Shown: positions 37,986-50,479 of the stretch, one piece after another
How positions within the stretch are numbered: the stretch's first letter is position 1
How the letters are laid out: every line of letters begins with the position of its first letter
Origin: Acidobacteriota bacterium
GTDB lineage: Bacteria > Acidobacteriota > UBA6911 > RPQK01 > JAJDTT01
Reading direction: 5' to 3'
DNA length: 64,000 nucleotides
Assembly (NCBI GenBank): GCA_965209055.1
Contig: OZ242374.1
Location: 2,368,001 to 2,432,000, forward strand
The notes under the pieces: generated by a model
Told to the model about the DNA's origin: nothing
What the model saw: the letters and a program-made list of their open reading frames with translations, nothing else
The model's database searches: none
Translations under genes and position numbers: made by a program

Positions 37986-38801
37986 TCACGATTCGACCCA
38001 GTGACGAAAGAGGGGCTTCACGTTCTCCGGCAAGCTGTCGTAGACGTGCTGGGGCACGGGAACGACGACGTTGTCCATGATCCCGGTCTCGTCCACCATC
38101 CGGGTTCGTTCCACGGAGCCCGGCATCAGGATGTCGAGGTTCAACCACCAGGGAGCGAACCGCACGGCCATGCCCACTCGCGCCCTGTCGCTCACGTTGT
38201 GGGAGATGGCGTGCCAGAGCCGGCTGTCGAAAAGCAGGACGCTGCCCGCGTCGCCGGTGGCCCGGATCTCGCTGGGGAAGGTCGCCATGGGGTCGACCCC
38301 GATGTCGCCGGTGGGGTTGTTGGGGTGGCGGTGGCTGCCCGGCACGATGATGGTGGCTCCCGTCTCCTCGGTGAAGGGAGAGAGCATCCAGAGCGTGGTC
38401 AGGTGCTGCACCGCGTCGGGGTAGGGCGCTGGGATGTGCCCCGCGTTGAGTTGATTGAAGGGCCAGTCGGCGTGGAGCTTCCCCCTTTGGTTTCCCGGAT
38501 AGCTGATGTGGGCGGTGGTGAAGGAGATCCGGTAGTGGGGTCCGAAGAGGGACTCGGCCACCCCCAGGAGGCGCGGGTCGGCCAGGTAGGGCGCGAACGA
38601 CTGGTCGAAGGCCAGAAGTCCTTTTCGGCTGCCCAGTCCCTGGATGTCCTCTCCGGTCCCGTGATTGGCCACCGTCTGCTCCACGTGTCGGCAGATCCCT
38701 CCGACCCGGTCCGCGGGAATGACGTCCTCCAAGACGTAAAAGCCCTGCAGATCCAGGTGCATGAGCGCCTGCCGGACGATTTGTTCCGTCTCTTGTGTCA
38801 T
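37986..38801 (-). CDS. Phytanoyl-CoA dioxygenase (PhyH) family Fe(II)/2-oxoglutarate oxygenase
   Basis: LHADW (HxD), IVPGSH, FDSRLWH and a conserved Arg downstream. Start overlaps the upstream stop (ATGA). Confidence 0.88.
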   Translation of the reverse strand: MTQETEQIVRQALMHLDLQGFYVLEDVIPADRVGGICRHVEQTVANHGTGEDIQGLGSRKGLLAFDQSFAPYLADPRLLGVAESLFGPHYRISFTTAHISYPGNQRGKLHADWPFNQLNAGHIPAPYPDAVQHLTTLWMLSPFTEETGATIIVPGSHRHPNNPTGDIGVDPMATFPSEIRATGDAGSVLLFDSRLWHAISHNVSDRARVGMAVRFAPWWLNLDILMPGSVERTRMVDETGIMDNVVVPVPQHVYDSLPENVKPLFRHWVES

Positions 38802-39862
38802 AGCGATTCGTCCTCATGGTTTTCCAGGTCCAGGCCCAGATCGTCGGCCACGGCCAGAACCTCGCGCCAGGTGGCCTGTGGAAGGACAATGCCTTCCCGT
38901 CTCCGCCTTCGCCGCTCCCTGGCTTCCCGCTCGCCCGGAATCCGGATCTCGTCGAATCCGGGAGCCCTGGGGGACGCCTTGATTCGTTCCAGGAACCCCT
39001 GCATTTGGGCGTGAAATTTCTCCGGGCGGGCGAAGCTGGCCACGTTGATGACGTTGAGAAAGACGGCGTTCCCTCCCCGGATCCGGTCCCAGTCGGTGCA
39101 GCCGGCGCCGCTCAGGGCTCCGGCCAGCGCCTCCACCGCGAGCCCGAGGCCGAAGCCCTTGTATCCCGCCGGCCCCCCCAGGGGAAGCAGGGAACCGGGA
39201 GGGTCTTCCAGGATCACGCCCGGATCGTTGGTGGGGCGCCCGCGGCTGTCGATGAGCCAGCCGTCGGGAACCGGTTCCCCCAGATTATGCGCCAGAGCCA
39301 CCTTTCCGCCGGCGGCGACGGTGGTGGTCATGTCCAGGATCAGCGGTGTCCCGCCGGTGGGCACGCCGACCCCCATGGGATTGGTGGAGAGGCGGGGATC
39401 GATCCCGCCGAAGGCTGCGGCCAATCCGCGCTGACCGTGGGCGTTGGCCATCATGATGGCCGCCATGCCCTCGCCGGTGACCATTCTCAGGTAGTCGCTG
39501 AGGCGGCCCAGGTGGTTGCAGTGGCGCACGCTGACCACGCAGGTGCCGGCTTTCCGAGCCTTCCGGATGCCTCGGAGCGTGGCCTCCCGGACCACCACGT
39601 GTCCGAAGCCCCAGTTTCCGTCCAATACGAGAGTGGAACCGGTCTCCCGAATCACCTCCACCTGCGCCCCGGGGACGATCTCTCCATTGGAGATCTTGTT
39701 CACGTAGCCCAATAGCGAAAGTGTGCCGTGAGAATCGTGGCCCGACAGGTGGGCGTCGATCCCCAGCGAGGCAACGGTCTCGGCCTCAGCCGGTGTCGCC
39801 CCCGCCGCCACCAGGATGCGTTGCAGGATTCGGCTCAGAGCTTCAGGTTGAAATCCAGGCAC
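38798..39862 (-). CDS. Ldh_2 family (malate/L-lactate/sulfolactate-type) oxidoreductase
   Basis: GGAGG RBS before GTG 39862. Motifs GHDSHG, LDGNWGFG, NHLGRL, STNP, LDMTT, YKGFGL and IPGE. Confidence 0.9.
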   Translation of the reverse strand: MPGFQPEALSRILQRILVAAGATPAEAETVASLGIDAHLSGHDSHGTLSLLGYVNKISNGEIVPGAQVEVIRETGSTLVLDGNWGFGHVVVREATLRGIRKARKAGTCVVSVRHCNHLGRLSDYLRMVTGEGMAAIMMANAHGQRGLAAAFGGIDPRLSTNPMGVGVPTGGTPLILDMTTTVAAGGKVALAHNLGEPVPDGWLIDSRGRPTNDPGVILEDPPGSLLPLGGPAGYKGFGLGLAVEALAGALSGAGCTDWDRIRGGNAVFLNVINVASFARPEKFHAQMQGFLERIKASPRAPGFDEIRIPGEREARERRRRRREGIVLPQATWREVLAVADDLGLDLENHEDESL

Positions 39863-39905
39863 CTGATCCCCCTCCGACAGGGTCCACCGGCGGGCCGAAA
39901 TCTAA

Positions 39906-41095
39906 GGAAGGTCTGATTAAGTCCTCATATGGGGCGAAACAGACCTTGTATCCCTCCCTTTTTCGGATCCAGACGCTCTAACCTGGGATTTGCAACCCTG
40001 AATTGGTCTTGACCAAGCGATTGCGAGACGGTTTCCCCAGCCTCAAACACAGCCGTGCCGCATTCCGATCAGGCGGTCACACCGGAGCGCTCGGCGATCA
40101 TCAGATTGGCGAATCCCACCAGCAGATAGATCCGTTGGGTGTTTTTCGCCAGCCCGCGGTAGCGCACCTTGGCGTAGCCGAAATGCCGTTTCAGGTACCC
40201 GAACACATGTTCTGCCTTCGCCCGTACCGATGCCTTACGCCGCTCGGCCAACGCCGCCTCACTCTCCGGCGACAGCTGCCAACGCTTCCCGGGCTTCATC
40301 ATCACCTGCCAATCCACCGGCCGATCTCGATTCTCCGACCGCTTCTGCACTCCCTGGTATCCGGAATCCCCCCAAACTTGCGACTCCGAGCCGTGCAGCA
40401 ATTCGGAGGCCCGCGTCACGTCATGCTCGTTGGCCGGAGCCGTCACCACCGTGTGCGCCACCCCCGTCTGGGCGTCCACCCCCAGGTGGGCCTTCATTCC
40501 GAAATACCACTGTTTTCCCTTTTTCGTCTGGTGCATCTCCGGATCCCGCGCCCGATCCTTGTTTTTCGTCGAGGAAGGCGCCGCCAGGATACTCGCGTCC
40601 ACGATCGTCCCCCGGCTCAGCCGCAGGCCTTGACGCTGCAGGTGAGAACCGATCTCCTCGAACAGCGCCTCCCCCAGACCATGCTCCTCCAGCCGATGAC
40701 GGAACTTCAGAATCGTCGTCTCGTCCGGCAGCGGCCCTGTGAGCTTCAGACCCACGAACCGCCGCACCGACTCCACCTCGTAAAGCAGATCCTCCATCCC
40801 CGGATCGCTCAGGTTGTAAAACAACTGCACGCAGTGGATCCGCAGCATCGCCGAGAGCGGGTAGGGACGCCGGCCCCGTCCCGCTTTCGGGTAAAACGGC
40901 TCAATCCGGGCTTCCAACTGCTCCCACGGAATCAACCCGTCCATGCGGACCAGAAACTTCTCCCGACGGGTCACCCGCTTCTTGGCGTCGTATTCCAGAT
41001 CTGCGAACGTCCGTTGCGACATCGTCTTTCCCCCCACGCAGTGATGATGAAGGGATTATCGTGCAGAACGCTGACTCGACTTAATCAGACCTTCC
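39906..41095 (-). mobile_element. IS5-family insertion sequence (IS5 subgroup), 1190 bp, complete
   Basis: Perfect 18-bp terminal inverted repeats GGAAGGTCTGATTAAGTC (39906-39923 and 41078-41095), flanked by a 4-bp CTAA duplication (39902-39905 and 41096-41099) that fits the YTAR target of IS5. Confidence 0.97.
40069..41022 (-). CDS. IS5 family DDE transposase
   Basis: Motifs GRRPYPL, LPDETTILKFR, IVDAS (D), WYFGMKAH, GDSGY (D) and RAKAEHVF (E). Alternative GTG start at 41037. Confidence 0.96.
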   Translation of the reverse strand: MSQRTFADLEYDAKKRVTRREKFLVRMDGLIPWEQLEARIEPFYPKAGRGRRPYPLSAMLRIHCVQLFYNLSDPGMEDLLYEVESVRRFVGLKLTGPLPDETTILKFRHRLEEHGLGEALFEEIGSHLQRQGLRLSRGTIVDASILAAPSSTKNKDRARDPEMHQTKKGKQWYFGMKAHLGVDAQTGVAHTVVTAPANEHDVTRASELLHGSESQVWGDSGYQGVQKRSENRDRPVDWQVMMKPGKRWQLSPESEAALAERRKASVRAKAEHVFGYLKRHFGYAKVRYRGLAKNTQRIYLLVGFANLMIAERSGVTA

Positions 41096-42172
41096 CTAAC
41101 CTGGGACCGAGTAATGGGCCAGGGCATCCCGGTCGAGTTTCAGACCGTGGCCCGGCCGGTCGGGCGCGATGGCATGGCCGTCTTCGAAGCGGATCGGCTC
41201 CTGGGCCAGGACGTTCCACATCAGATCGGAGAACTCCATGTAGAGGCACTCGGGAAAACTCACCGCCGCGTGGACCCCGGTCTCCAGAGGAGTGTTTCCC
41301 AGGGCGACGGGAATCCCGTAGTCGCCCGCCAGCCGGGCGGCCGTCCGCGATTCGGAGATGGACGTGTGCACGTTCAGCACGTCCACGGCGGCGGCCTCCA
41401 GCAGGCGCCGCTTCCCGGAGAAGCCCAGGTATTCCCCGGTGTTGATGCGGGTGAAGGGAATCTCGGCACAGAGCATCCGGTAGCCGTCCAGATCGTTGCG
41501 GTCGATGGGGTCCTCCATCCAGTAGATCTCGAACCCCTCGTCGCGGTAGCGGTGAAGCCGCAACAGGGCCTCCTTGGGTGACCAGGCCTCGTTGGAATCG
41601 ATCATGAGGTCCGGTTCGGGCCCCATCACCTGGCGGGCGATGGCCATCCGGGCCAGATCCCACTCCACGTCGGGGTGGCCCACCTTGATCTTCATGGCCT
41701 TGAATCCCTGCTCCCGGAACCGGATCAGCTTGGCCCGGAACTCGTCGTCCGTCAGATGGAAGTCGAGGGTGCTCCCGTAGGCCCGAACCCGGGTCCGGGT
41801 CCCTCCCAGCAGCCGGTAGAGGGGGAGATCCAGGTGCTTGGCCATCAGGTCCCAGAGCGCCGTCTCCACAACGAGGGCGAAGGGAGAGGCGCCGACGTTT
41901 CCGCCCCGGGGCCGCTCGATGCGATTGGCAAGGGTGAAGGGGTTCGCTCCCAGGAGGCCAGGCCAGGTCTGGAACTCGAATTGTTCCTTCAGTTCCTTCA
42001 GGGCGGCCGTAGGCATCCCCTGCTGGACCTGAAAACCGACTCCCCGCAGGCCGGTGTCGGTCTCCAATTCCAGAATCGTTCCCCGGTGATCCACGAAGCG
42101 GACCTGGGAATCGCCGATGGGGTGGGGCAGAGGGAGATGGACTCTGTGGATTTCGTACTGTTTCAGCTTCAT
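41096..42172 (-). CDS. Enolase-superfamily (mandelate racemase-like) enzyme
   Basis: Motifs ETALWD, MKIKVG, IDSN, MEDP, GEY and PGHG. Its stop codon lies inside the IS target duplication. Confidence 0.88.
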   Translation of the reverse strand: MKLKQYEIHRVHLPLPHPIGDSQVRFVDHRGTILELETDTGLRGVGFQVQQGMPTAALKELKEQFEFQTWPGLLGANPFTLANRIERPRGGNVGASPFALVVETALWDLMAKHLDLPLYRLLGGTRTRVRAYGSTLDFHLTDDEFRAKLIRFREQGFKAMKIKVGHPDVEWDLARMAIARQVMGPEPDLMIDSNEAWSPKEALLRLHRYRDEGFEIYWMEDPIDRNDLDGYRMLCAEIPFTRINTGEYLGFSGKRRLLEAAAVDVLNVHTSISESRTAARLAGDYGIPVALGNTPLETGVHAAVSFPECLYMEFSDLMWNVLAQEPIRFEDGHAIAPDRPGHGLKLDRDALAHYSVPG

Positions 42173-43654
42173 TCAATTTCCTTGAAAGTAGGAGACGATG
42201 ACACGGACTCCCAGGGAGAACATGACGGCGCCGGCAACGGCGGTGGCCAGCCGGAGCTTCCAGCTCATGCGCAGCGGGGGCGGCAGCCGGTAGCGGTCGG
42301 CCCAGATCATGGCGAAGCACCAGAGTCCGCAGGCGGCAATTCCGCCGCTGATCACTCCCGTGAAGGTGACGCGCCCGAGCACGTCGCCGGCGATCTCCTT
42401 GGGGAGCCAGACCAGCAGCAATCCGCCCAGAAAGCAGTAGATGATGGTCACCGTTCTCAGGGACTTGAAAAAGGGGCGCTCCACGAAACGGGGAAAGATG
42501 CTGCGCACTCCTTCGGAGATGACGCGGGAGTAGACCTCGAAAGCCCCGTAGAGGGTCCCGATGAAGGCCAGGAAGACGCCCACCCGGTAGAGCCACTTGA
42601 GTTGAGGATGCAGGGTGGTCAGGAAGGACTCCTGGACGGTGAGGAACTCGCTGCCGTCGGGAATCGCCCGGTTCGGGTTCAGCACCATGGATCCCAGGAT
42701 GGCGAAGAGCAAGGTCACCAGGATGACGAAGGTGAAGGAGAGGGTGGTGTCCAGCAGAGGAGCCCGGGTCCAGATGCGGGCCCGCTCGACCGCCTCCGAG
42801 GCGGAGTTCCGAGCCGCCTCGGCCAGTTCCCGGCTGCCGGCGACACGAATCCCCGCCAGTCCCCATTTCTTCTCCCGAAGGAAGCCGATGTACCCCACGT
42901 AGTCCTGGCTGCCTCCTCCCACCGCACCGATGTAGAGCAAGACCTCCAGCCAGGGACTGCGCCCGGAGAATGTCTGGGAATATTTCTCCAGGACCCAGGG
43001 CTGGTAGTCGCTGACCCGAGGGAGAAAGAGCCCTTGGAACAGGTCAGGAATGTTGGGCCCCAGGATCACCACGGCCGAAGCAATGCACAGCACCATGATC
43101 CCCAGGATCACGGTGGAGAGGCGCTCCACAATGTCGTAGGTGGAGATCAGCGCCAGGATCAGGCAGGCGGTCAGGACCACCGTGGCCCAGACATTGAGCC
43201 AGAATTCCAGGTGTTGCCAGGGGCCGACGCCTGCCCCCTCCACGGTTCCTCCCATGAGCCGATGAATGAAGGTCGCCAGGATCTCGGGAAGGGCCGAGAA
43301 CCCCACCAGCATGAGCATGACCGCGGGGAGGACGATGAGCAGCGGAAACGCCATTCCCACCACCGGCATGGAGCACCAGGTGGTCATGGGATGCTCTCCG
43401 GTCAGGACGATGTGCCGGGAGGCGGTGTAGACCTGGATCCCCTTGAAGATGCCGGCGTAGAGAAAGCACCAGAGCATTCCATAGCCGAAGATGGCGCCGC
43501 TCCGGGAGGCGAAGACCAGCTCGCCGCTGGCGATGGTCACCGAGGCGATGATGACGCCGGGGCCCACGAAGACCCAGAGCGAGGAGAGGGTCGGACGCCG
43601 CAGCAGCGACGGCGGGGAGGGATAGACGTGCGGGTCCGACTCGGGCCGAATCAC
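42173..43654 (-). CDS. Nramp-like (YcsG-type) membrane transporter of unknown substrate
   Basis: GPGVIIASVTIASGEL and GAVGG motifs with about 11 hydrophobic segments. No DPGN motif. Confidence 0.72.
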   Translation of the reverse strand: MIRPESDPHVYPSPPSLLRRPTLSSLWVFVGPGVIIASVTIASGELVFASRSGAIFGYGMLWCFLYAGIFKGIQVYTASRHIVLTGEHPMTTWCSMPVVGMAFPLLIVLPAVMLMLVGFSALPEILATFIHRLMGGTVEGAGVGPWQHLEFWLNVWATVVLTACLILALISTYDIVERLSTVILGIMVLCIASAVVILGPNIPDLFQGLFLPRVSDYQPWVLEKYSQTFSGRSPWLEVLLYIGAVGGGSQDYVGYIGFLREKKWGLAGIRVAGSRELAEAARNSASEAVERARIWTRAPLLDTTLSFTFVILVTLLFAILGSMVLNPNRAIPDGSEFLTVQESFLTTLHPQLKWLYRVGVFLAFIGTLYGAFEVYSRVISEGVRSIFPRFVERPFFKSLRTVTIIYCFLGGLLLVWLPKEIAGDVLGRVTFTGVISGGIAACGLWCFAMIWADRYRLPPPLRMSWKLRLATAVAGAVMFSLGVRVIVSYFQGN

Positions 43655-43655
43655 G

Positions 43656-44894
43656 TCAGCGCCGCTTCCTCAGGTCCAGGCAGGCGATGTGGTGATGGTC
43701 GCGGGCGTAGAGCCGTCCTCCGGCCAACGCCGGCGGAGTCCAAGCCCGGTGCTGGAGAATCTTTTTCACGCCCGTCTGCCGGTACCCTTCCGGTGTGGCC
43801 TGAACCATGGCGATGTGGCCCTGTTCCCCCAGGACGATGAGGTGGCCCTGCGCCGCGATCAGGGAACCCTTGCCCACGCTGCGATGGGCCCAGAGGACCT
43901 CCCCGTCCGTCAGCCGCATGCACTTGAGGACCGAGTTGTCGAACCCGTAAAGGTATTCTCCCACCAGCACGCACCCGTTGTAGTGGTTCTGCATGATCTC
44001 CGTGGTCCAGACGAACTTGGACTCCACGCTGTCGCCTTTCGGGGTCAGACGCAGGAGGCCGCTTCCGGTTCCGCGTCCCGAGGAGATGAACAGGTACGGA
44101 TTGGCGAAAATCGGCGTGGCGATGTTCATGTCCGACGTGGTCCGCCACTCATGCTTCCAATGGAGCTTCCCGTCTCCCGGCGACAGGCCCATGATGGCGC
44201 GTCCTCCGAAGAAGACGACTTCCCGGATCCCGCCGACCGTGATGGCGATGGGGGAGGAATAGCTGGCCACCTCGTCCAGCGCCTTCCAGATCACCTTCCC
44301 CGACTCTTTGTCGAAGGCAACGACGGAAGCTCCCGGCGCACCCACGTTCACCAGGAGCATGTTCTCTTCCACCAGGGGAGAGGTGGAAACGCCCCAGATC
44401 AGGTTCTCCGCACCCATCTCCTCCAGGATCTCCCGTTTCCAGATCACCCTTCCCGAGCGCTTGTCCAGGCAGAGCAAGGTTCCCGTCGCCCCCAGGGCAT
44501 AGACTCGCGGGCCGTCGACGGTGGGTGTCGAGCGGGCGCCGTTGCCCCCTTGGTATTCCTTGTACGAAGCCGCCGAGAGCGCCTTCCAGAGTTCCAGTCC
44601 CGTGCCCGTGTCCAGGCACACGACCCACTCCTCGTCGTCCCGGTCGACCATGGTGTAGAGGCGTCCCTGGGAGACGGAGAGGGAGGAAAAGCCCTCGCCC
44701 CCTTCCACCTTCCAGACCAGGGGAGGACCGGGCTGGGACCACGCGGTGATGATCCCCTGCTCCCTGGAGATTCCGTCGCGGGCCGGACCGCGCCATTGGG
44801 GCCAGTCGGCGGCCGCCAGTTCCGCCGCCGACATGGGAAGGGCCAGCGGCGCCCAGAACGTCAGTGCCAGAAGGACTCTGCTCCTGCTCATCAT
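43656..44894 (-). CDS. Secreted PQQ-like (BamB-type) beta-propeller repeat protein
   Basis: Signal peptide, DWPQWRGP and repeated (C/A)(L/F)Dxx(T/S)GxxxW units. Start uncertain (44894-44939). Confidence 0.85.
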   Translation of the reverse strand: MMSRSRVLLALTFWAPLALPMSAAELAAADWPQWRGPARDGISREQGIITAWSQPGPPLVWKVEGGEGFSSLSVSQGRLYTMVDRDDEEWVVCLDTGTGLELWKALSAASYKEYQGGNGARSTPTVDGPRVYALGATGTLLCLDKRSGRVIWKREILEEMGAENLIWGVSTSPLVEENMLLVNVGAPGASVVAFDKESGKVIWKALDEVASYSSPIAITVGGIREVVFFGGRAIMGLSPGDGKLHWKHEWRTTSDMNIATPIFANPYLFISSGRGTGSGLLRLTPKGDSVESKFVWTTEIMQNHYNGCVLVGEYLYGFDNSVLKCMRLTDGEVLWAHRSVGKGSLIAAQGHLIVLGEQGHIAMVQATPEGYRQTGVKKILQHRAWTPPALAGGRLYARDHHHIACLDLRKRR

Positions 44895-44935
44895 TTCTTC
44901 TCTCCAATTCATTTCTCTCGACCGCGGCCGAGCGT

Positions 44936-45358
44936 TCAAGATCCACCTCCGGGAGAATCATGTCGGATCCTGGATCGGCCTCGATGGGACGCCGGCGGGT
45001 CGCCTTCCAGATAGGTGGTCCCCAGGAAGGGGTCCTTGACCGGGAAGAAGGCGAGGATCCGGGCCGTGCCGGGACCGGGATTGATGAATCCGTGGGGGGT
45101 GCGTGCGGGTACCACCACCGTATGTTCGGGACCGACGCGATGCGTCTCCGAACCCAGGCGAAACTCCAGGGTCCCCTCCTGAACCACAATGAACTCCTCG
45201 GCCTCGTGAAAGTGCAGCGGCGCCCCCGCACCCGTTCCCACCAGAGCCCAGGATACGCTGCTGGTGGTGGTTCCATCACCGTCGCGGGTGATGTCATAGC
45301 TCCGGTAGTTGGGTCTCCACGGCTTCTCGGGCAGGCTGCGGTGTTCTACTATGGGCAT
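44936..45358 (-). CDS. Cupin domain protein
   Basis: PLHFHEAEE and VPARTPHGF metal-binding cupin motifs. Confidence 0.85.
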   Translation of the reverse strand: MPIVEHRSLPEKPWRPNYRSYDITRDGDGTTTSSVSWALVGTGAGAPLHFHEAEEFIVVQEGTLEFRLGSETHRVGPEHTVVVPARTPHGFINPGPGTARILAFFPVKDPFLGTTYLEGDPPASHRGRSRIRHDSPGGGS

Positions 45359-45423
45359 GGGTTTCGGCTCCTGTTCGAATGCTGGGATTGTAGCCGACCC
45401 GCCGCTGGAAAAGAATCCACGAC

Positions 45424-47013
45424 ATGTCTCAAACCGCTGCCGGGAACCTGGTCGACTGCCTGTTGGAATGTGGGGTGCGCCATCTCTTCACCCTGTCAGG
45501 GAACCAGATCCTCTCCCTCTACGACGCCACCATCGGCCGGGATCTGAAACTGATCCACACCCGCCACGAGGCCGCCGCCGTGCACATGGCCGATGCCTGG
45601 GGCCGGTTGCAGGAAACTGCCGGGGTCGCTGTGGTGACAGCGGGACCAGGGCACTGCAACTCTATCGGCGCCCTCTACGTGGCGCTCCAGGTCGAGTCGC
45701 CTCTGGTCCTCATCAGTGGACACTCGCCCTTAAGCCAATTGGGGAATGGAGCCTTCCAGGAGATGGACCAGGTGGCCATCGCGGCTCCCGTGACCAAGGC
45801 CTCTTGGCGGGTCGATGCCCCGGAACGGGCGGCGGCCGCCCTCGACGAGGCTTTGGCTCTGGCCGGTTCAGGGAGGCCGGGACCGGTTCATCTCAGCATT
45901 CCCAGCGACGTCCTGGCCGCAACAGCGGAAATCTCTGACAGGCCTCCCCGGAAGCAGAACCCGCCGGAATCCATTGCGCAGGAAGACGCTGAGCAGGTCC
46001 TGCGCCTTCTGGCCGGAGCTCGGCGGCCTCTCCTGCTGGCCGGCGCGGCCATGTCGCGGCCGCTTCGGTGGCAAACGGTGAGGGAACTCGCCCGCGCCTG
46101 CGGCGCGCCGGCTCTCAAGATGGAGAGTCCCCGGGGCGTCAACGATCCTCGACTCTACGGGGCGTCCCGGTTGTTCGGCCGCGCCGACCTGGTGGTGCTG
46201 CTGGGGAAGGACCTGGATTTCGCCCTCCGCTTCGGAGGGCCTCCCTTCGCAGCCGATTGCAGGTTCGTCCAAATCGCCGCGCCGGGGCACCCGGCTCCGG
46301 ATCACCCGAAAACCGTGCTGAGCCTGGGGGCCGATCCGGCCACGGCAGCGCTGCAACTGGCTCGCCGGTGTCGCGGAAACGGCTCCGCTTTCGATTCGTG
46401 GCGCCGCGCCGTCGAGTCGGCCCGTTCGGAAACGCCTGCCGAGTGGGAAGATTGGCGGGGTGGCGCGCAGAGTCCGATCCATCCTCTCCGCGTCTGCGAA
46501 GGCCTCCGTCCGTTCCTGACCGACACCGCCGTGGTGGTGAGCGATGGAGGGGAGTTCGGTCAGTGGGCACAGGCCGGACTGGACTCCCGAGTGAACCTGA
46601 TCAACGGGCCGTCGGGCGCCATCGGAAGCGCGATCCCCATGGCGCTCGCCTGCCGGTTGGCCCGGCCCGGACAACCGGTCTTCGCCTTCCTGGGAGACGG
46701 GACCTTCGGATATCACGCCCTGGAATTCGATACGGCCCTGCGTTACCGGCTTCCCGTCGTGGCCATCGTCGGCAACGATGCTCGCTGGAATGCGGAATAC
46801 CAGTTGCAACTGGACCATTACGGGCCCGAGCGGACGGTGGCCTGCGAGCTTCTCCCGACTCGATACGACCAGGCGGTAGAAGCCCTGGGCGGCCACGGGG
46901 AGTGGGTGCCGGAGCCGGACCAGTTGGAACCGGCGTTGGAACGAGCTCTCGATTCCGGCCTCCCTGCCTGTGTGAACGTCGCCGTCGAGGGCGTGAAAGC
47001 CCCCGCGTTCTAA
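45424..47013 (+). CDS. Thiamine-diphosphate-dependent enzyme (acetolactate synthase / 2-hydroxyacyl-CoA lyase-like)
   Basis: Motifs RHEAAAVHMADAW, TAGPG, FQEMDQ, GRPGPVHL, DGGEF and the ThDP motif GDGTFG...N. Confidence 0.88.
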   Translation: MSQTAAGNLVDCLLECGVRHLFTLSGNQILSLYDATIGRDLKLIHTRHEAAAVHMADAWGRLQETAGVAVVTAGPGHCNSIGALYVALQVESPLVLISGHSPLSQLGNGAFQEMDQVAIAAPVTKASWRVDAPERAAAALDEALALAGSGRPGPVHLSIPSDVLAATAEISDRPPRKQNPPESIAQEDAEQVLRLLAGARRPLLLAGAAMSRPLRWQTVRELARACGAPALKMESPRGVNDPRLYGASRLFGRADLVVLLGKDLDFALRFGGPPFAADCRFVQIAAPGHPAPDHPKTVLSLGADPATAALQLARRCRGNGSAFDSWRRAVESARSETPAEWEDWRGGAQSPIHPLRVCEGLRPFLTDTAVVVSDGGEFGQWAQAGLDSRVNLINGPSGAIGSAIPMALACRLARPGQPVFAFLGDGTFGYHALEFDTALRYRLPVVAIVGNDARWNAEYQLQLDHYGPERTVACELLPTRYDQAVEALGGHGEWVPEPDQLEPALERALDSGLPACVNVAVEGVKAPAF

Positions 47014-47078
47014 GGCGTTTATCGAGCCTCGACGGGTTTCTTGACCCCCTCTTCGAGGCCGGGATAGACTGCGCCCTC

Positions 47079-48176
47079 ATGAGTTCCGAGCCCCTGCAGG
47101 ATCAGGCCAGGTCCCGGCGTGACGAATTGGACGCTCACGTCCGGGCCATGGTCCAGTGGCATTTCGACCCCGAGACGGGGTGCCCCTTCTGGCTCGACTG
47201 GGCCGGCAAGGCGGACTGGGATCCTCGCCAGGAGGTCAAGGGCCTGGACGACCTCTCCCGTTTCGGCCTGTTCGACGACGATTGGCTGAGGGGCGGGCCG
47301 GTACGCCGCTGGGTCCCCCGGGCCTATGCCCAGGATCCCGTCTTCGTCTTCGAGACCGGGGGGACCACCGGAACCCCCAAGAGCCGGGTCAACGTGCGGG
47401 ACTTTCGGGTGGACTACGAACTTTTCTCGGAGACGCTGGCGCCGGAGCATTTCCCCCTGAATTCCAACTGGCTCATGTTGGGCCCGTCAGGCCCGCGCCG
47501 CCTGCGTCTGGCCGTGGAGCACCTGGCCCATCATCGCGGCGGAATCTGCTTTTGCGTGGACCTGGACCCCCGCTGGGTCATCAAGCTCATCAAGAAGGGG
47601 TGGACGGATCACCTGAAGGCCTACCAGGAGCATGTGATCGACCAGGCCATGACCCTTCTTTCCGCCGGCCACGAGATCCGCTGCCTGTTCACCACCCCCA
47701 AGCTGCTGGAAGCGCTGTGCGACAGGCTGGAGGATCAGGGAACCAGTCTGCGCGAAACCGGAATCACCGGAATCTTTTCCGGCGGGACGGAGTTTACGCC
47801 CCAGTGGTACCGATTCGCCGTGGAGGAGCTCCTGGACGGCGTCTACATGACGCCGACGTACGGAAACTCCCTCATGGGACTGGCCGCCTCCAAGGCCTTC
47901 GACCCGGCGGAGAACTACAAGATCACCTACTATGCGCCGCAGCCCAGGGCGGTGTTGCGGGTCGTGGACTTCGACGACACGGAGAAGGTCGTCGGTTACG
48001 GCGAGACGGGCCGGGTCCTGTTGACCACCCTGACTCCCGAGCTGTTCATTCCCCAATTCCTGGAGCGGGACGAAGGGGAGCGGGAGCCCCCCTGTGCGCA
48101 ATACCCCTGGGACGGCGTGAGCGGCGTTCGCCCGTTTCACCGCTTTGCCGCCACCACGACGGTGGGAGTCTACTAG
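47079..48176 (+). CDS. EhpF-like truncated ANL-superfamily adenylating enzyme
   Basis: ATG 47079. Motifs WHFDPETGCPFW, FETGGTTGTPK (P-loop), DLDPRWV, TTP, GGTE, YG, GETGRV, ERD and a C-terminal GVY match my recollection of the EhpF pattern. 365 aa. Confidence 0.75.
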   Translation: MSSEPLQDQARSRRDELDAHVRAMVQWHFDPETGCPFWLDWAGKADWDPRQEVKGLDDLSRFGLFDDDWLRGGPVRRWVPRAYAQDPVFVFETGGTTGTPKSRVNVRDFRVDYELFSETLAPEHFPLNSNWLMLGPSGPRRLRLAVEHLAHHRGGICFCVDLDPRWVIKLIKKGWTDHLKAYQEHVIDQAMTLLSAGHEIRCLFTTPKLLEALCDRLEDQGTSLRETGITGIFSGGTEFTPQWYRFAVEELLDGVYMTPTYGNSLMGLAASKAFDPAENYKITYYAPQPRAVLRVVDFDDTEKVVGYGETGRVLLTTLTPELFIPQFLERDEGEREPPCAQYPWDGVSGVRPFHRFAATTTVGVY

Positions 48177-48255
48177 GCATTTGCGCTCTCTATCATCGGC
48201 GCCAAATCAAATCGGACCGTAGTAGACTGGGAAATCAAAATCCGGGAGGGATTCG

Positions 48256-49680
48256 GTGATTCATTTTCCCGTTCTTCGCTGGGGCAAGCCCTATAAGAGC
48301 CTGGACGTGGACCAGGTGGTGCATTTCATCAGCGGTGAGCCGCTGGCGGAAGTCAGCCAGGCCATCGGCGGGATGATCGCCCGGGACATGCGAAGAGGGC
48401 AGCGGGCTCGGGACGCGCTCCGGGAGATCCCGATCCGGGAACTGATCCGCCGGGTATCTGAGGCGGCGGACCTGTTCATGTCCGCCGAGCTCCCGGCCGG
48501 CGACGGAAGCCAGACCCCCGGCGAGTTCGTGCGGTACCAGTCGGCAACCACGGGATTGCCCGAGCACATGTGCCGCCAGAACATGGAGAAGCTTCACTAC
48601 GTCCTGACCTCGATGGAGCAGATCCTGGACGCGCTGACCCGGGGCCTCGATCTGTCCATATTGACCGCGGGTTACGGCGAGGAAAACGGTGTCGTCCGGA
48701 GCTTTCAGGCCACGACCCCGGTGCTGGGCATGGTGCTCCCTTCCAACTCACCCGGAGTTCACGGCCTCTGGCTCCCCGTCATTCCGCTCCAGATCGGACT
48801 GGTCCTCAAGCCGGGACCCCAGGAGCCGTGGACCCCATATCGGATGAGCGAGGCCTTCTTCCAGGCGGGCATCCCCCGAAACGCCGTCTCCCTCTATCCG
48901 GGGTTGGGGGATGTGGGTGCGGCCGTGCTCCAGCACTGCACGCGGAATCTCATCTTCGGCGGAACCCCGACCATCGAGCAATACGGCAACAATCCCCGCG
49001 TCCAGGTGCACGGCCCCGGATTCAGCAAGATTCTGCTGGGGGACGACGAGGTCGACGATTGGGAAAGCCATCTGGACCTCATGGTGGACAGCGTCCTGAT
49101 CAACAGCGGCCGCAGTTGCATCAGTTGTTCCGGCATCTGGGTCTCGCGCCACGGGCGGGAAATCGCCGACGCGCTGGCTCAGCGTCTGGGACCCATTGCG
49201 CCCAAGGATCCCCGGGACCCCGATTCCCAACTGGCTGCTTTCACGGTGAAGGGTCAGGGAGAAGCCATCGACTCGGGGATCGAACAGGGGCTTCAAGAGC
49301 CCGGGATCGAGGATGTGACGGCCCGGTACCGCGACGGCGACCGCCTGATTTCCCGTGAGCGATGCTCCTACTTGCGGCCCACGGTGATCCATTCCCCGTC
49401 TCCCGAAGCCACGCTGGCCAATACGGAGTACATGTTCCCCTTCGCCAGCGTGGTGGAATGCCCCCAGAGCCAGATGCTGGACCGTATCGGAGACAGCCTG
49501 GTGGTGACCGGTATCACGGAAGATCCCGCCTTTCGCCAGAAGCTCATGGACTGTCCCCACATCGACCGCCTCAACCTGGGCCCCATCCCCACCATCCGCC
49601 TCAACTGGCTCCAACCCCACGAGGGGAACCTGGTGGACTTCCTCTACCGCGCCCGGGCCTTCCAGACCACGGCCGGGTGA
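48256..49680 (+). CDS. ALDH-fold acyl reductase (EhpG/LuxC-like)
   Basis: GTG start with GGAGG RBS. Motifs LPSNSPGVH, LKPG, FGG, HGPGFSK, NSGRSC (catalytic Cys), EYMFPF and PHEGNL. Confidence 0.78.
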   Translation: MIHFPVLRWGKPYKSLDVDQVVHFISGEPLAEVSQAIGGMIARDMRRGQRARDALREIPIRELIRRVSEAADLFMSAELPAGDGSQTPGEFVRYQSATTGLPEHMCRQNMEKLHYVLTSMEQILDALTRGLDLSILTAGYGEENGVVRSFQATTPVLGMVLPSNSPGVHGLWLPVIPLQIGLVLKPGPQEPWTPYRMSEAFFQAGIPRNAVSLYPGLGDVGAAVLQHCTRNLIFGGTPTIEQYGNNPRVQVHGPGFSKILLGDDEVDDWESHLDLMVDSVLINSGRSCISCSGIWVSRHGREIADALAQRLGPIAPKDPRDPDSQLAAFTVKGQGEAIDSGIEQGLQEPGIEDVTARYRDGDRLISRERCSYLRPTVIHSPSPEATLANTEYMFPFASVVECPQSQMLDRIGDSLVVTGITEDPAFRQKLMDCPHIDRLNLGPIPTIRLNWLQPHEGNLVDFLYRARAFQTTAG

Positions 49681-49753
49681 CGCCGCATCGATTCCCTGGC
49701 CGAATATGTCTGTGCACACGTATCTGACGACTGACGCTTGGATGGTGACACTC

Positions 49754-50479
49754 TCACTCCGGACCGGTTGAGGTTCGCGGTGCCCTCCAGCGGGCCACCA
49801 GGAACGGAGAGAGAACGACGAAGAACATGGCCAGCGCGACCAGGTCGATGATGGGGATGTACCAGGGCCATCCGGCGAAGAAGAAGGGGGATTCGGTGCC
49901 GGCCGGTGGCCGGCAGAGAAACATGTAGTTGGATCCCAACAGGAAGTTCAGGACGCCGAGCACGACTGCAAGAATGTTGAGGGCGACGAAGGCTCGGAAC
50001 AGCCCGCCCAGCGTCGGCCGCATCTTCAGGCCCAGGGTGGCGTACAGGACTCCCGCCACGATGCCGGAGTGGGCGATGAAGTACTGGAAGAAGCGGTAGT
50101 CGGGGAATCCCGCATCCAGGTCCCCTGGGGTGATGACGGCGTTCGTGGATCCCGCCAGGCCCCAGAAATAGACGATTTCGAAAATTCTCCGGCGGCGGAA
50201 GATCAGAACCGCGGCCGTCAGGATAATCGTTAATCCGCAGACGTGAAGCGGCAGATGGTCCTGCACGAAGTGGCTCCAGCCGACGGCATTCAGCCGGTAG
50301 CCCCAGTGGATCGTTTCGTTGACCAGCAGGGTGCCGGCCAGGAGCCAGGCGCCGGCGTCGGCCACCGTTTTCGAGGCCGTCTTTCGTACCGCCGCGATCA
50401 TCAGAATCGGCACGGCCAGGGTCAGCGCCATCACGATGAGGTGAGGCGTCCCGAAGATCTGGAATTCCGGCGTTGGCAT
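49754..50479 (-). CDS. YwaF/TIGR02206-like integral membrane protein
   Basis: Motifs LPLHVC, YFWG, ITP, FFQYFIAH, NYMFL and WPWY, with several TM segments. Confidence 0.82.
   Translation of the reverse strand: MPTPEFQIFGTPHLIVMALTLAVPILMIAAVRKTASKTVADAGAWLLAGTLLVNETIHWGYRLNAVGWSHFVQDHLPLHVCGLTIILTAAVLIFRRRRIFEIVYFWGLAGSTNAVITPGDLDAGFPDYRFFQYFIAHSGIVAGVLYATLGLKMRPTLGGLFRAFVALNILAVVLGVLNFLLGSNYMFLCRPPAGTESPFFFAGWPWYIPIIDLVALAMFFVVLSPFLVARWRAPRTSTGPE

Follow-up and report, generated by a model that had tools for sequence, protein, structure and literature searches.

Introduction

To our knowledge, carboxylic acid reductases that consist of two proteins and need no carrier have been described from no more than two pathways, for antibiotics or pigments. 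In the grixazone pathway of Streptomyces griseus, GriC forms the acyl-AMP of 3-amino-4-hydroxybenzoate (3,4-AHBA) and GriD reduces this acyl-AMP to the aldehyde, according to the account of Suzuki et al. (2007) given in PMC10179220. EhpF and EhpG are encoded in the D-alanylgriseoluteic acid cluster of Pantoea agglomerans; structures of EhpF are available (3L2K, 3HGU, 3HGV), and the title of the structure paper (Bera et al., 2010, as cited in PMC3175449) describes an enzyme without the C-terminal subdomain. Here we describe a counterpart of these pairs in an Acidobacteriota bacterium (GenBank assembly GCA_965209055.1, contig OZ242374.1). The window, by which we mean the whole stretch of 64,000 nt that was analysed (positions 2,368,001 to 2,432,000 of the forward strand), holds at 45424–49680 a gene for a thiamine diphosphate (ThDP) enzyme (P0001) followed by genes for an EhpF-like protein (P0002) and an EhpG-like protein (P0003). 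A sequence-only reading of the window had interpreted the latter two as an orphan carboxylate-reducing pair and had coupled them to the ThDP enzyme in one pathway; as a whole, this interpretation is partly supported.

Two further systems are close in outline. LuxE and LuxC work by adenylation, transfer of the acyl group to a cysteine of a reductase with the aldehyde dehydrogenase (ALDH) fold, and reduction by NADPH. The same outline is proposed below for P0002 and P0003, but neither protein matches the Pfam LuxE or LuxC models at E ≤ 0.01. The adenylation–thiolation–reduction (A-T-R) carboxylic acid reductases (Car with its phosphopantetheinyl transferase) catalyse the net reaction that we propose for the pair, but carrier and terminal reductase domains were not detected here (Pfam finds AMP-binding in P0002 and Aldedh in P0003), and the reductase has the ALDH fold instead.

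We consider it probable that the pair is a two-protein carboxylic acid reductase of the EhpF/EhpG (GriC/GriD) type, that it forms its own transcription unit and the core of a system found in several phyla, and that the ThDP enzyme is a neighbour. A few literature searches on EhpF and arylcarboxylate reductase, which brought up papers on phenazine biology (PMC3175449, PMC11278526), showed no description of this subfamily among the titles listed; no search was aimed at the system of propellers and reductases described below.

Results

The EhpF-like and EhpG-like proteins

The first gene of the pair (47079–48176, forward strand) encodes P0002, an adenylating protein of 365 residues that consists of the ANL N-terminal domain only. 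Its motifs (WHFDPETGCPFW, ETGGTTGTPK, DLDPRWV, SGGTEF and a C-terminal VGVY) are made of residues that are invariant across 27 aligned family members. When solved structures were searched by sequence with P0002, the EhpF entries were the only close matches (3L2K, E 1e-45, residues 16–354 against 19–354 of 366); the next are 4-chlorobenzoate-CoA ligases, which align over the P-loop stretch only and at E > 0.03. Since the alignment covers nearly all of EhpF, P0002 lacks the ANL C-terminal subdomain, as EhpF does. Identity to the Pantoea protein is 32% (E 8e-49), and to Streptomyces plasmid homologs labelled ‘arylcarboxylate reductase’ 33–35%. The Pfam AMP-binding match (29.7 bits) falls slightly below the model cut-off of 29.9, a protein atlas returned only clusters named ‘putative AMP-binding enzyme’, and no NCBIfam model reaches its cut-off for P0002, P0003 or the ThDP enzyme. 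The EhpF-like gene is present once in the genome. One of the Streptomyces plasmids carries a lone EhpF-like ‘arylcarboxylate reductase’ (L083:7001–8086); the next annotated gene there encodes a type I polyketide synthase, not an ALDH-fold protein.

The second gene (48256–49680, forward strand) encodes P0003, an ALDH-fold reductase of 474 residues (Pfam Aldedh, 72 bits). Its GTG start is consistent with the family consensus MIHFP in the alignment of 27 sequences, and a GGGAGGG ribosome-binding motif (48244–48250, forward strand) lies 5 nt ahead of it. On alignment with a canonical ALDH (5gtk), P0003 retains the catalytic cysteine (NSGRSC), the oxyanion asparagine (PSNSP) and the later glutamate of the nucleotide site (TEYMFPF), but carries HGPGFSK at the position of ELGGK and has thus lost the general-base glutamate motif. 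C288, N164 and H252–K258 are invariant in 27 of 27 sequences. P0003 aligns along its whole length with its Pantoea homolog EhpG (24% identity over 434 residues, E 9e-29), with which it shares the GPGxSK motif, the aligned cysteine and a C-terminal PH(D/E)G motif. Its NCBIfam matches, to methylmalonate-semialdehyde and phenylacetaldehyde dehydrogenases, are weak and far below the cut-offs. Neither P0002 nor P0003 has a signal peptide.

The sequence features named in the sequence-only reading (the motifs and 365-residue length of P0002; the ALDH fold, cysteine and HGPGFSK of P0003) are therefore all in place, and the similarity to EhpF and EhpG that it had proposed is borne out. The two systems are colinear over their full length: an ANL protein of 365 or 366 residues without C-terminal subdomain precedes an ALDH-fold protein of 473 or 474 residues with GPGxSK in place of ELGGK. 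They differ in their low mutual identity and in their setting; EhpF/EhpG belong to an antibiotic cluster, whereas the present subfamily, at roughly 60–80% identity across phyla, occurs with exported propeller proteins. Homology thus supports the carrier-free two-protein carboxylate reductase which the sequence-only reading had put forward, and the pair, very probably such an enzyme, belongs to a widespread, uncharacterised subfamily.

A predicted complex of P0002 and P0003

Structure prediction supports binding of P0002 to P0003 as a heterodimer. The pair scored 0.75 (0.78, 0.73 and 0.75 in single runs) against 0.00 for the best of three controls, with a partner pLDDT of 90 or more; the runs shared no fewer than 72% of contacts. 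The pair passed the mark used, as did 116 of 157 solved complexes and 2 of 215 mismatched pairs, counts that are only a rough guide here because we supplied our own alignments. The predicted interface involves residues 171–180, 207–219 and 238–250 of P0002 and 15–17, 35–46 and 219–249 of P0003, and takes in W175, H178, Q242, W243, R245 and F246 of P0002, which are invariant in the family.

Occurrence of the pair

Relatives of P0002 were collected in a scan with one genome per species, which gave 307 stretches; locus counts below refer to the best 80. A phylum profile was drawn from an even sample of 301 Acidobacteriota genomes (E ≤ 1e-30 for P0002). Our tallies of the pair, of the PaaK-like ligase and of the 742-residue propeller (see below) count the unpublished genomes G049 and G152 as carriers; the conclusions are unchanged without them. 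An EhpF-like gene is present in 81 of the 301 genomes, in 79 of these at ≥ 59% identity and nearly always as a single copy; identities across the sample lie mostly between 59 and 98%. The best 80 loci are 66–98% identical to P0002; their records are titled as Acidobacteriota (Vicinamibacterales, Thermoanaerobaculia and Aminicenantes among them), Gemmataceae and other Planctomycetota, Chthonomonadales, one Chloroflexi metagenome-assembled genome (MAG) and one ‘Alcaligenaceae’ MAG. A protein collection clustered at 90% identity contains at least 8000 matches at E ≤ 0.001 (the best 120 at 72–95% identity), and 285 representatives of a 50%-identity library, many of them fragments, match at E ≤ 1e-30. 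The label ‘orphan’ given to the pair by the sequence-only reading has therefore to be dropped, as the pair is carried by about a quarter of the sampled phylum and by other phyla.

The two genes travel together. An ALDH-fold gene shares the locus with the EhpF-like gene in 71 of 80 cases, and a contig end explains six of the nine exceptions. In two Vicinamibacterales loci (L020, L021) a large FtsX gene directly follows the EhpF-like gene and no ALDH-fold gene is found within the locus. P0002 is 66–96% identical to the 26 relatives with which it was aligned, from three phyla, and the mean column identity of the 27-sequence alignments is 78% for P0002 and 77% for P0003.

Propellers, a ligase and an exporter accompany the pair

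A single operon contains the pair in Planctomycetota, Chthonomonadales and the ‘Alcaligenaceae’ MAG; it runs from a PaaK-like ligase (AMP-binding plus AMP-binding_C_2) through three PQQ_2 propellers and the pair to an iron-type alcohol dehydrogenase (Fe-ADH) and an ACSF4-type propeller. The last of these exceeds the cut-off of the Pfam Beta-prop_ACSF4 model (265–280 bits against 133). A planctomycete locus (L047:11754–14111) encodes a fusion of the Fe-ADH to an ACSF4-type beta-propeller, which is odd if this propeller is exported, as its stand-alone relatives appear to be.

To count companions, orthologs from the present genome were used in tblastn searches within 8 kb of the pair. The 485-residue propeller was found in 30 of the 80 loci and the 742-residue propeller in 29, six of which (L002, L004–L008) are weak matches of 27–28% to the paralog of the type seen in the window. 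The Fe-ADH followed in 16 loci, the PaaK-like ligase in 15 and the ACSF4-type propeller in 10.

The link between pair and propeller extends to genomes in which the genes are dispersed. Of the 301 Acidobacteriota genomes, 80 encode a 742-residue propeller (E ≤ 1e-80); 76 of the 81 genomes with the pair belong to this set, and 216 genomes lack both genes. Of the five genomes with the pair only, two hold distant homologs (34% and 37% identity) and three are assemblies that are 92%, 71% and 55% complete. Distances between the starts of the two genes, tabulated for 53 of the 76 genomes, are up to 6 kb in 20, up to 35 kb in 13 and larger in 18; in two the genes are on different contigs. That the link survives such dispersal argues for a real functional unit. 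One 742-residue propeller ortholog (G230:C4:1140954–1143173) has a single in-frame TGA. The PaaK-like ligase (E ≤ 1e-60) occurs in 36 of the 301 genomes, 33 of which have the pair; within the order of the window's genome, ligase and pair have the same distribution (present together in 16 genomes, both missing from four).

The present genome, a single 6.08-Mb contig that is 98.4% complete, keeps the members of the system at four loci up to 2.8 Mb apart and not in one operon. The 485- and 742-residue propellers are encoded at 3.4643–3.4680 Mb. A GT4 glycosyltransferase (fused to an ABC-transporter ATPase) and a MacB/FtsX permease are encoded at 5.169–5.180 Mb, together with a radical SAM enzyme, a halogenase-like flavoprotein and the PaaK-like ligase; the gene for the ACSF4-type propeller converges on this group. 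The Fe-ADH is at 5.192 Mb. In the fusion (L167:11329–13341; 5.169–5.171 Mb) glycosyltransferase and ATPase share one frame directly before the permease. A large FtsX gene comes after the pair in six loci of the Vicinamibacterales type, and its products there are 44–48% identical to the FtsX protein of the present genome; the radical SAM enzyme is 54–57% identical to proteins encoded downstream of the L064 and L072 operons.

In all four propellers that were examined, an N-terminal signal peptide leads into a DWPxWRG-type motif. As P0002 and P0003 lack signal peptides, the system joins cytoplasmic enzymes to exported proteins. Animal AASDH/ACSF4, in which an ANL enzyme is fused to a propeller of the pyrroloquinoline quinone (PQQ) type, likewise links the two folds; the propellers here differ in being separate, exported proteins with signal peptides. 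In a check for PQQ biosynthesis the pqqC model found no match, which is uninformative since the control was silent too.

No genes found for a phenazine or GriH-type route to the acid

In the ehp cluster on the Pantoea agglomerans plasmid, genes for PhzA/B, an isochorismatase, an anthranilate-synthase-like protein, PhzF and a pyridoxine-phosphate-oxidase-like protein precede the AMP-binding and ALDH genes. The sequence-only reading had noted that the window lacks phz core genes, and this absence extends to the whole genome: tblastn with the Pantoea PhzA/B and PhzF proteins gave no homolog at E ≤ 1e-5 in 6.08 Mb, and Pfam PhzC-PhzF gave no match (positive in 10 of 14 control genomes). Pfam PhzA/B was negative as well, a result of little weight given that its control was silent. 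A phenazine origin of the acid was rejected on the tblastn and PhzC-PhzF results. Pfam DHQS, which we take to be the family of the 3,4-AHBA synthase GriH, also had no match in the genome (positive in three of 14 controls), and 3,4-AHBA from a GriH-type route was rejected on this result. Judged by gene content, then, the acid is neither phenazine-1,6-dicarboxylate nor 3,4-AHBA from the known routes.

The ThDP enzyme is a family-specific neighbour

The ThDP gene (45424–47013, forward strand) encodes 529 residues that match Pfam TPP_enzyme_N, _M and _C with 113, 33 and 90 bits. As the sequence-only reading had it, the gene lies 65 nt upstream of the EhpF-like gene on the same strand (stop at 47013, ATG at 47079). 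Only 10 of the 80 loci with the pair (L002–L009, L012, L013) have a ThDP homolog no more than 8 kb away, and all 10 are close relatives of the window. Among the 301 genomes, an ortholog (E ≤ 1e-80) is restricted to eight from two genera of the window's own family; it lies beside the pair in each, at a gap of 68 nt in the window's genus and of 308 or 575 nt in the other, and was not found in the other 73 of the 81 genomes with the pair. In L012 a gene for monomeric isocitrate dehydrogenase (IDH; L012:5583–7817) stands between the ThDP and EhpF-like genes; the same locus has an IS1595 transposase (L012:1729–2649) between its MR_MLE and PQQ_2 genes. Identities within the genus are 78–93% for the ThDP enzyme, 94–98% for the EhpF-like protein and 92–99% for the reductase.

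ThDP relatives at 46–59% identity are common elsewhere, and one of them is assigned to Candidatus Poribacteria. In 80 metagenome loci of such relatives no EhpF-like, ALDH-like or PQQ_2 homolog was found within up to 7 kb. These loci show other recurrent neighbours: either a D-serine-dehydratase-like pyridoxal phosphate enzyme gene directly upstream (15 loci) and a flavin mononucleotide-dependent hydroxy-acid dehydrogenase (12), or an altronate/galactarate-dehydratase-like gene (7) with an SdhB-like iron-sulfur protein, sulfatase, TctC and fumarase. The sequence-only reading had named uniqueness of the adjacency to this genome as the finding that would tell against its ThDP coupling; the adjacency does reach beyond this genome, to all eight genomes of the family, but it stops there and so comes close to that outcome. 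With the pair absent from the loci of ThDP relatives and a promoter-like element of its own (see below), we conclude that the ThDP enzyme is a family-specific neighbour outside the conserved system, and that a ThDP-coupled pathway beyond one bacterial family is not supported.

Among solved structures, the ThDP enzyme is closest to an actinobacterial 2-hydroxyacyl-CoA lyase (7pt1, E 3.6e-62); 8vzf matches at E 1.3e-52, and 2-hydroxyacyl-CoA synthases, oxalyl-CoA decarboxylases, catabolic acetolactate synthases and benzaldehyde lyase follow. NCBIfam scores are all below the cut-offs (290 against 600, 206 against 557 and, for the best model PRK05858, 364 against 587). The enzyme is shorter at the C-terminus than these lyases: it ends at residue 529, and the solved lyase chain (612 residues, partly tag) extends some 48 residues further in a tail that forms the lid. 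The dehydratase genes beside the relatives, together with an MR_MLE gene two genes away in the window, hint at a 2-oxo acid as substrate, and the enzyme may have a separate job, probably C–C cleavage or decarboxylation of a 2-oxo acid or a 2-hydroxyacyl thioester. The same dehydratase genes suggest a tie between the ThDP gene and the divergent PQQ_2 and MR_MLE genes of the window, a weak idea; this grouping was set aside, as it is confined to the family and a homolog occurs in none of the 80 loci of ThDP relatives.

A promoter-like element ahead of the pair

The only promoter-like site between 44800 and 49900, TTGACC-18 nt-TAGACT (47041–47070, forward strand), lies inside the 65-nt spacer. It was found by promoter scan and by conservation in relatives. 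A distance of 8 nt separates the end of the element from the ATG start of the EhpF-like gene, which has no Shine-Dalgarno motif, and the element is invariant in eight of eight genus-level sequences, in which the first half of the spacer varies. Homologous CTTGACCC...GATAGAAT sequences stand upstream of the EhpF-like gene in L009, L011, L012 and L013, and in L012 the element is downstream of the IDH gene and so still before the pair. The element therefore travels with the pair and not with the ThDP gene, and the pair may well be its own transcription unit.

Surrounding genes

The genes that flank the three-gene stretch are on the opposite strand or unrelated. Upstream and divergent from the ThDP gene is a PQQ_2 beta-propeller gene (P0126; 43656–44939, reverse strand; Pfam PQQ_2, 99 bits). 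Its product has a signal peptide and a DWPQWRG motif, and is a distant paralog (about 25% identity) of the regular propellers of the pair, with 24.5% identity to the propeller of the planctomycete operon. Beyond it a reverse-strand group conserved within the genus (37986–43654) comprises a weakly matching Nramp-like permease, an enolase-superfamily (MR_MLE) gene, Ldh_2 and a PhyH dioxygenase, and looks like a catabolic set for hydroxy-amino acids or sugar acids. An insertion sequence-type DDE transposase (DDE_Tnp_1 plus DUF772; 40069–41037, reverse strand) sits between the Ldh_2 and MR_MLE genes; L002 and L004–L008 have the two genes side by side, without a transposase match. Downstream, a bacterial member of the TMEM164 family (49754–50479, reverse strand, 153 bits) is convergent with the reductase gene and is followed by an amidohydrolase (Amidohydro_2) gene, an adjacency kept in close relatives. 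Two runs with 60% of the sampled words of 45300–49750 carry a sponge metagenome label, which is a hint to habitat only.

Discussion

The chemistry of the pair is inferred by analogy with GriC/GriD, in which an AMP-forming protein and a reductase convert an aromatic acid to its aldehyde without a carrier domain, as described in PMC10179220; no GriH-type synthase was found in the present genome. P0002 would adenylate a carboxylic acid with ATP, the acyl group would pass to Cys288 of the tightly bound P0003, and NAD(P)H would reduce the thioester to the aldehyde; having lost the hydrolytic glutamate, P0003 should be unable to release the acid. In the wider system the Fe-ADH could carry the aldehyde on to the alcohol, and the GT4 protein with the MacB-type machine could glycosylate and export the product. 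We suggest that the pair is the cytoplasmic core of this multi-phylum system, whose other members would be two or three exported PQQ_2 propellers, the PaaK-like ligase, the Fe-ADH, the ACSF4-type propeller, the radical SAM enzyme, the halogenase-like flavoprotein and the GT4/MacB-type exporter.

Several observations weigh against this assignment. P0002 and P0003 share only 32% and 24% identity with the characterised proteins, function being assigned by homology, and an ALDH fold without the glutamate would also suit a CoA-acylating aldehyde dehydrogenase that runs towards oxidation. Of the 81 genomes with the pair, only 33 have a PaaK-like gene, most Vicinamibacterales loci have no propeller within 8 kb, and the co-occurrence counts are drawn from related genomes and so overstate independence; the repeated adjacency of propellers in distant families is the stronger argument. 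The promoter scan, with one site found against 0.6 expected, is weak alone. The ThDP gene is upstream of the pair on the same strand in eight of eight family genomes, and the scan of 44800–49900 found no terminator-like site in the spacer, so that read-through may occur and the ThDP enzyme may have been recruited locally.

If so recruited, the ThDP enzyme would condense the aldehyde made by the pair (by carboligation or formyl-CoA addition) or supply its acid or aldehyde by cleavage. The shared strand and the 65-nt gap, an adjacency kept in all eight family genomes, the spacer without terminator-like site and the use of aldehydes by the 2-hydroxyacyl-CoA lyases and synthases that are its best solved relatives would all suit such a role. 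We nevertheless regard it as unlikely: the enzyme was not found in 73 of 81 genomes with the pair, the pair is in none of the 80 loci of ThDP relatives, an IDH gene intervenes in L012, the conserved promoter-like element stands directly ahead of the pair, the ThDP enzyme has diverged about four times as much as the pair within the genus, and the protein stops at 529, some 48 residues short of the solved lyase chain. An oxidative role for the pair itself, with P0003 a CoA-acylating aldehyde dehydrogenase and P0002 an acid-CoA or acid-AMP ligase of a degradation route, is doubtful too. Members of the ALDH superfamily that acylate CoA likewise lack the general-base glutamate, the weak NCBIfam matches of P0003 are to methylmalonate-semialdehyde and phenylacetaldehyde dehydrogenases, and the Fe-ADH after the pair in planctomycete operons could feed a route from alcohol through aldehyde to acyl group. 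However, ANL ligases use the C-terminal subdomain for the thioester step, and P0002, like EhpF, does not have it; the NCBIfam matches are all far under the cut-offs; the predicted tight heterodimer suits direct acyl transfer; and the two closest characterised pairs are assigned to acid reduction, GriC/GriD by assay in the account available to us.

A fatty acid reductase of the LuxE/LuxC type, providing fatty aldehydes for lipids or waxes, would follow the same logic of an acyl-protein synthetase and an ALDH-fold reductase without carrier protein, and a MacB-type exporter and a GT4 gene would not be out of place beside it. It appears very improbable, since P0002 and P0003 are missed by the Pfam LuxE and LuxC models, the best named relatives are EhpF and ‘arylcarboxylate reductase’, and the window has no LuxD-type transferase beside the pair.

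We therefore retain the two-protein carboxylic acid reductase as the preferred reading. On this basis we speculate, with little confidence, that the pair, the PaaK-like ligase, the radical SAM enzyme, the halogenase-like flavoprotein, the Fe-ADH, the GT4 protein and the MacB-type exporter make and export a small aromatic aldehyde or alcohol as a ligand or prosthetic group of the PQQ_2 propellers. If true, this would be an undescribed pathway for a periplasmic cofactor or envelope molecule in Acidobacteriota, Planctomycetota and Armatimonadota, and a functional unit despite its scattered genes.

The window warns against taking the ThDP neighbour for a member of the pathway; what it adds is a scattered but complete case (four loci), a count of the profile in one phylum and a clear negative on the ThDP coupling. 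The enzyme logic of two antibiotic or pigment pathways would recur in roughly one in four of the sampled Acidobacteriota genomes as well as in other phyla, conserved at the level of core metabolism, in a subfamily that is tied to exported propeller proteins. The pair could yield a compact carboxylate reductase for biocatalysis, and identifying its acid would open up a very common physiology in soil, marine and sponge-associated bacteria.

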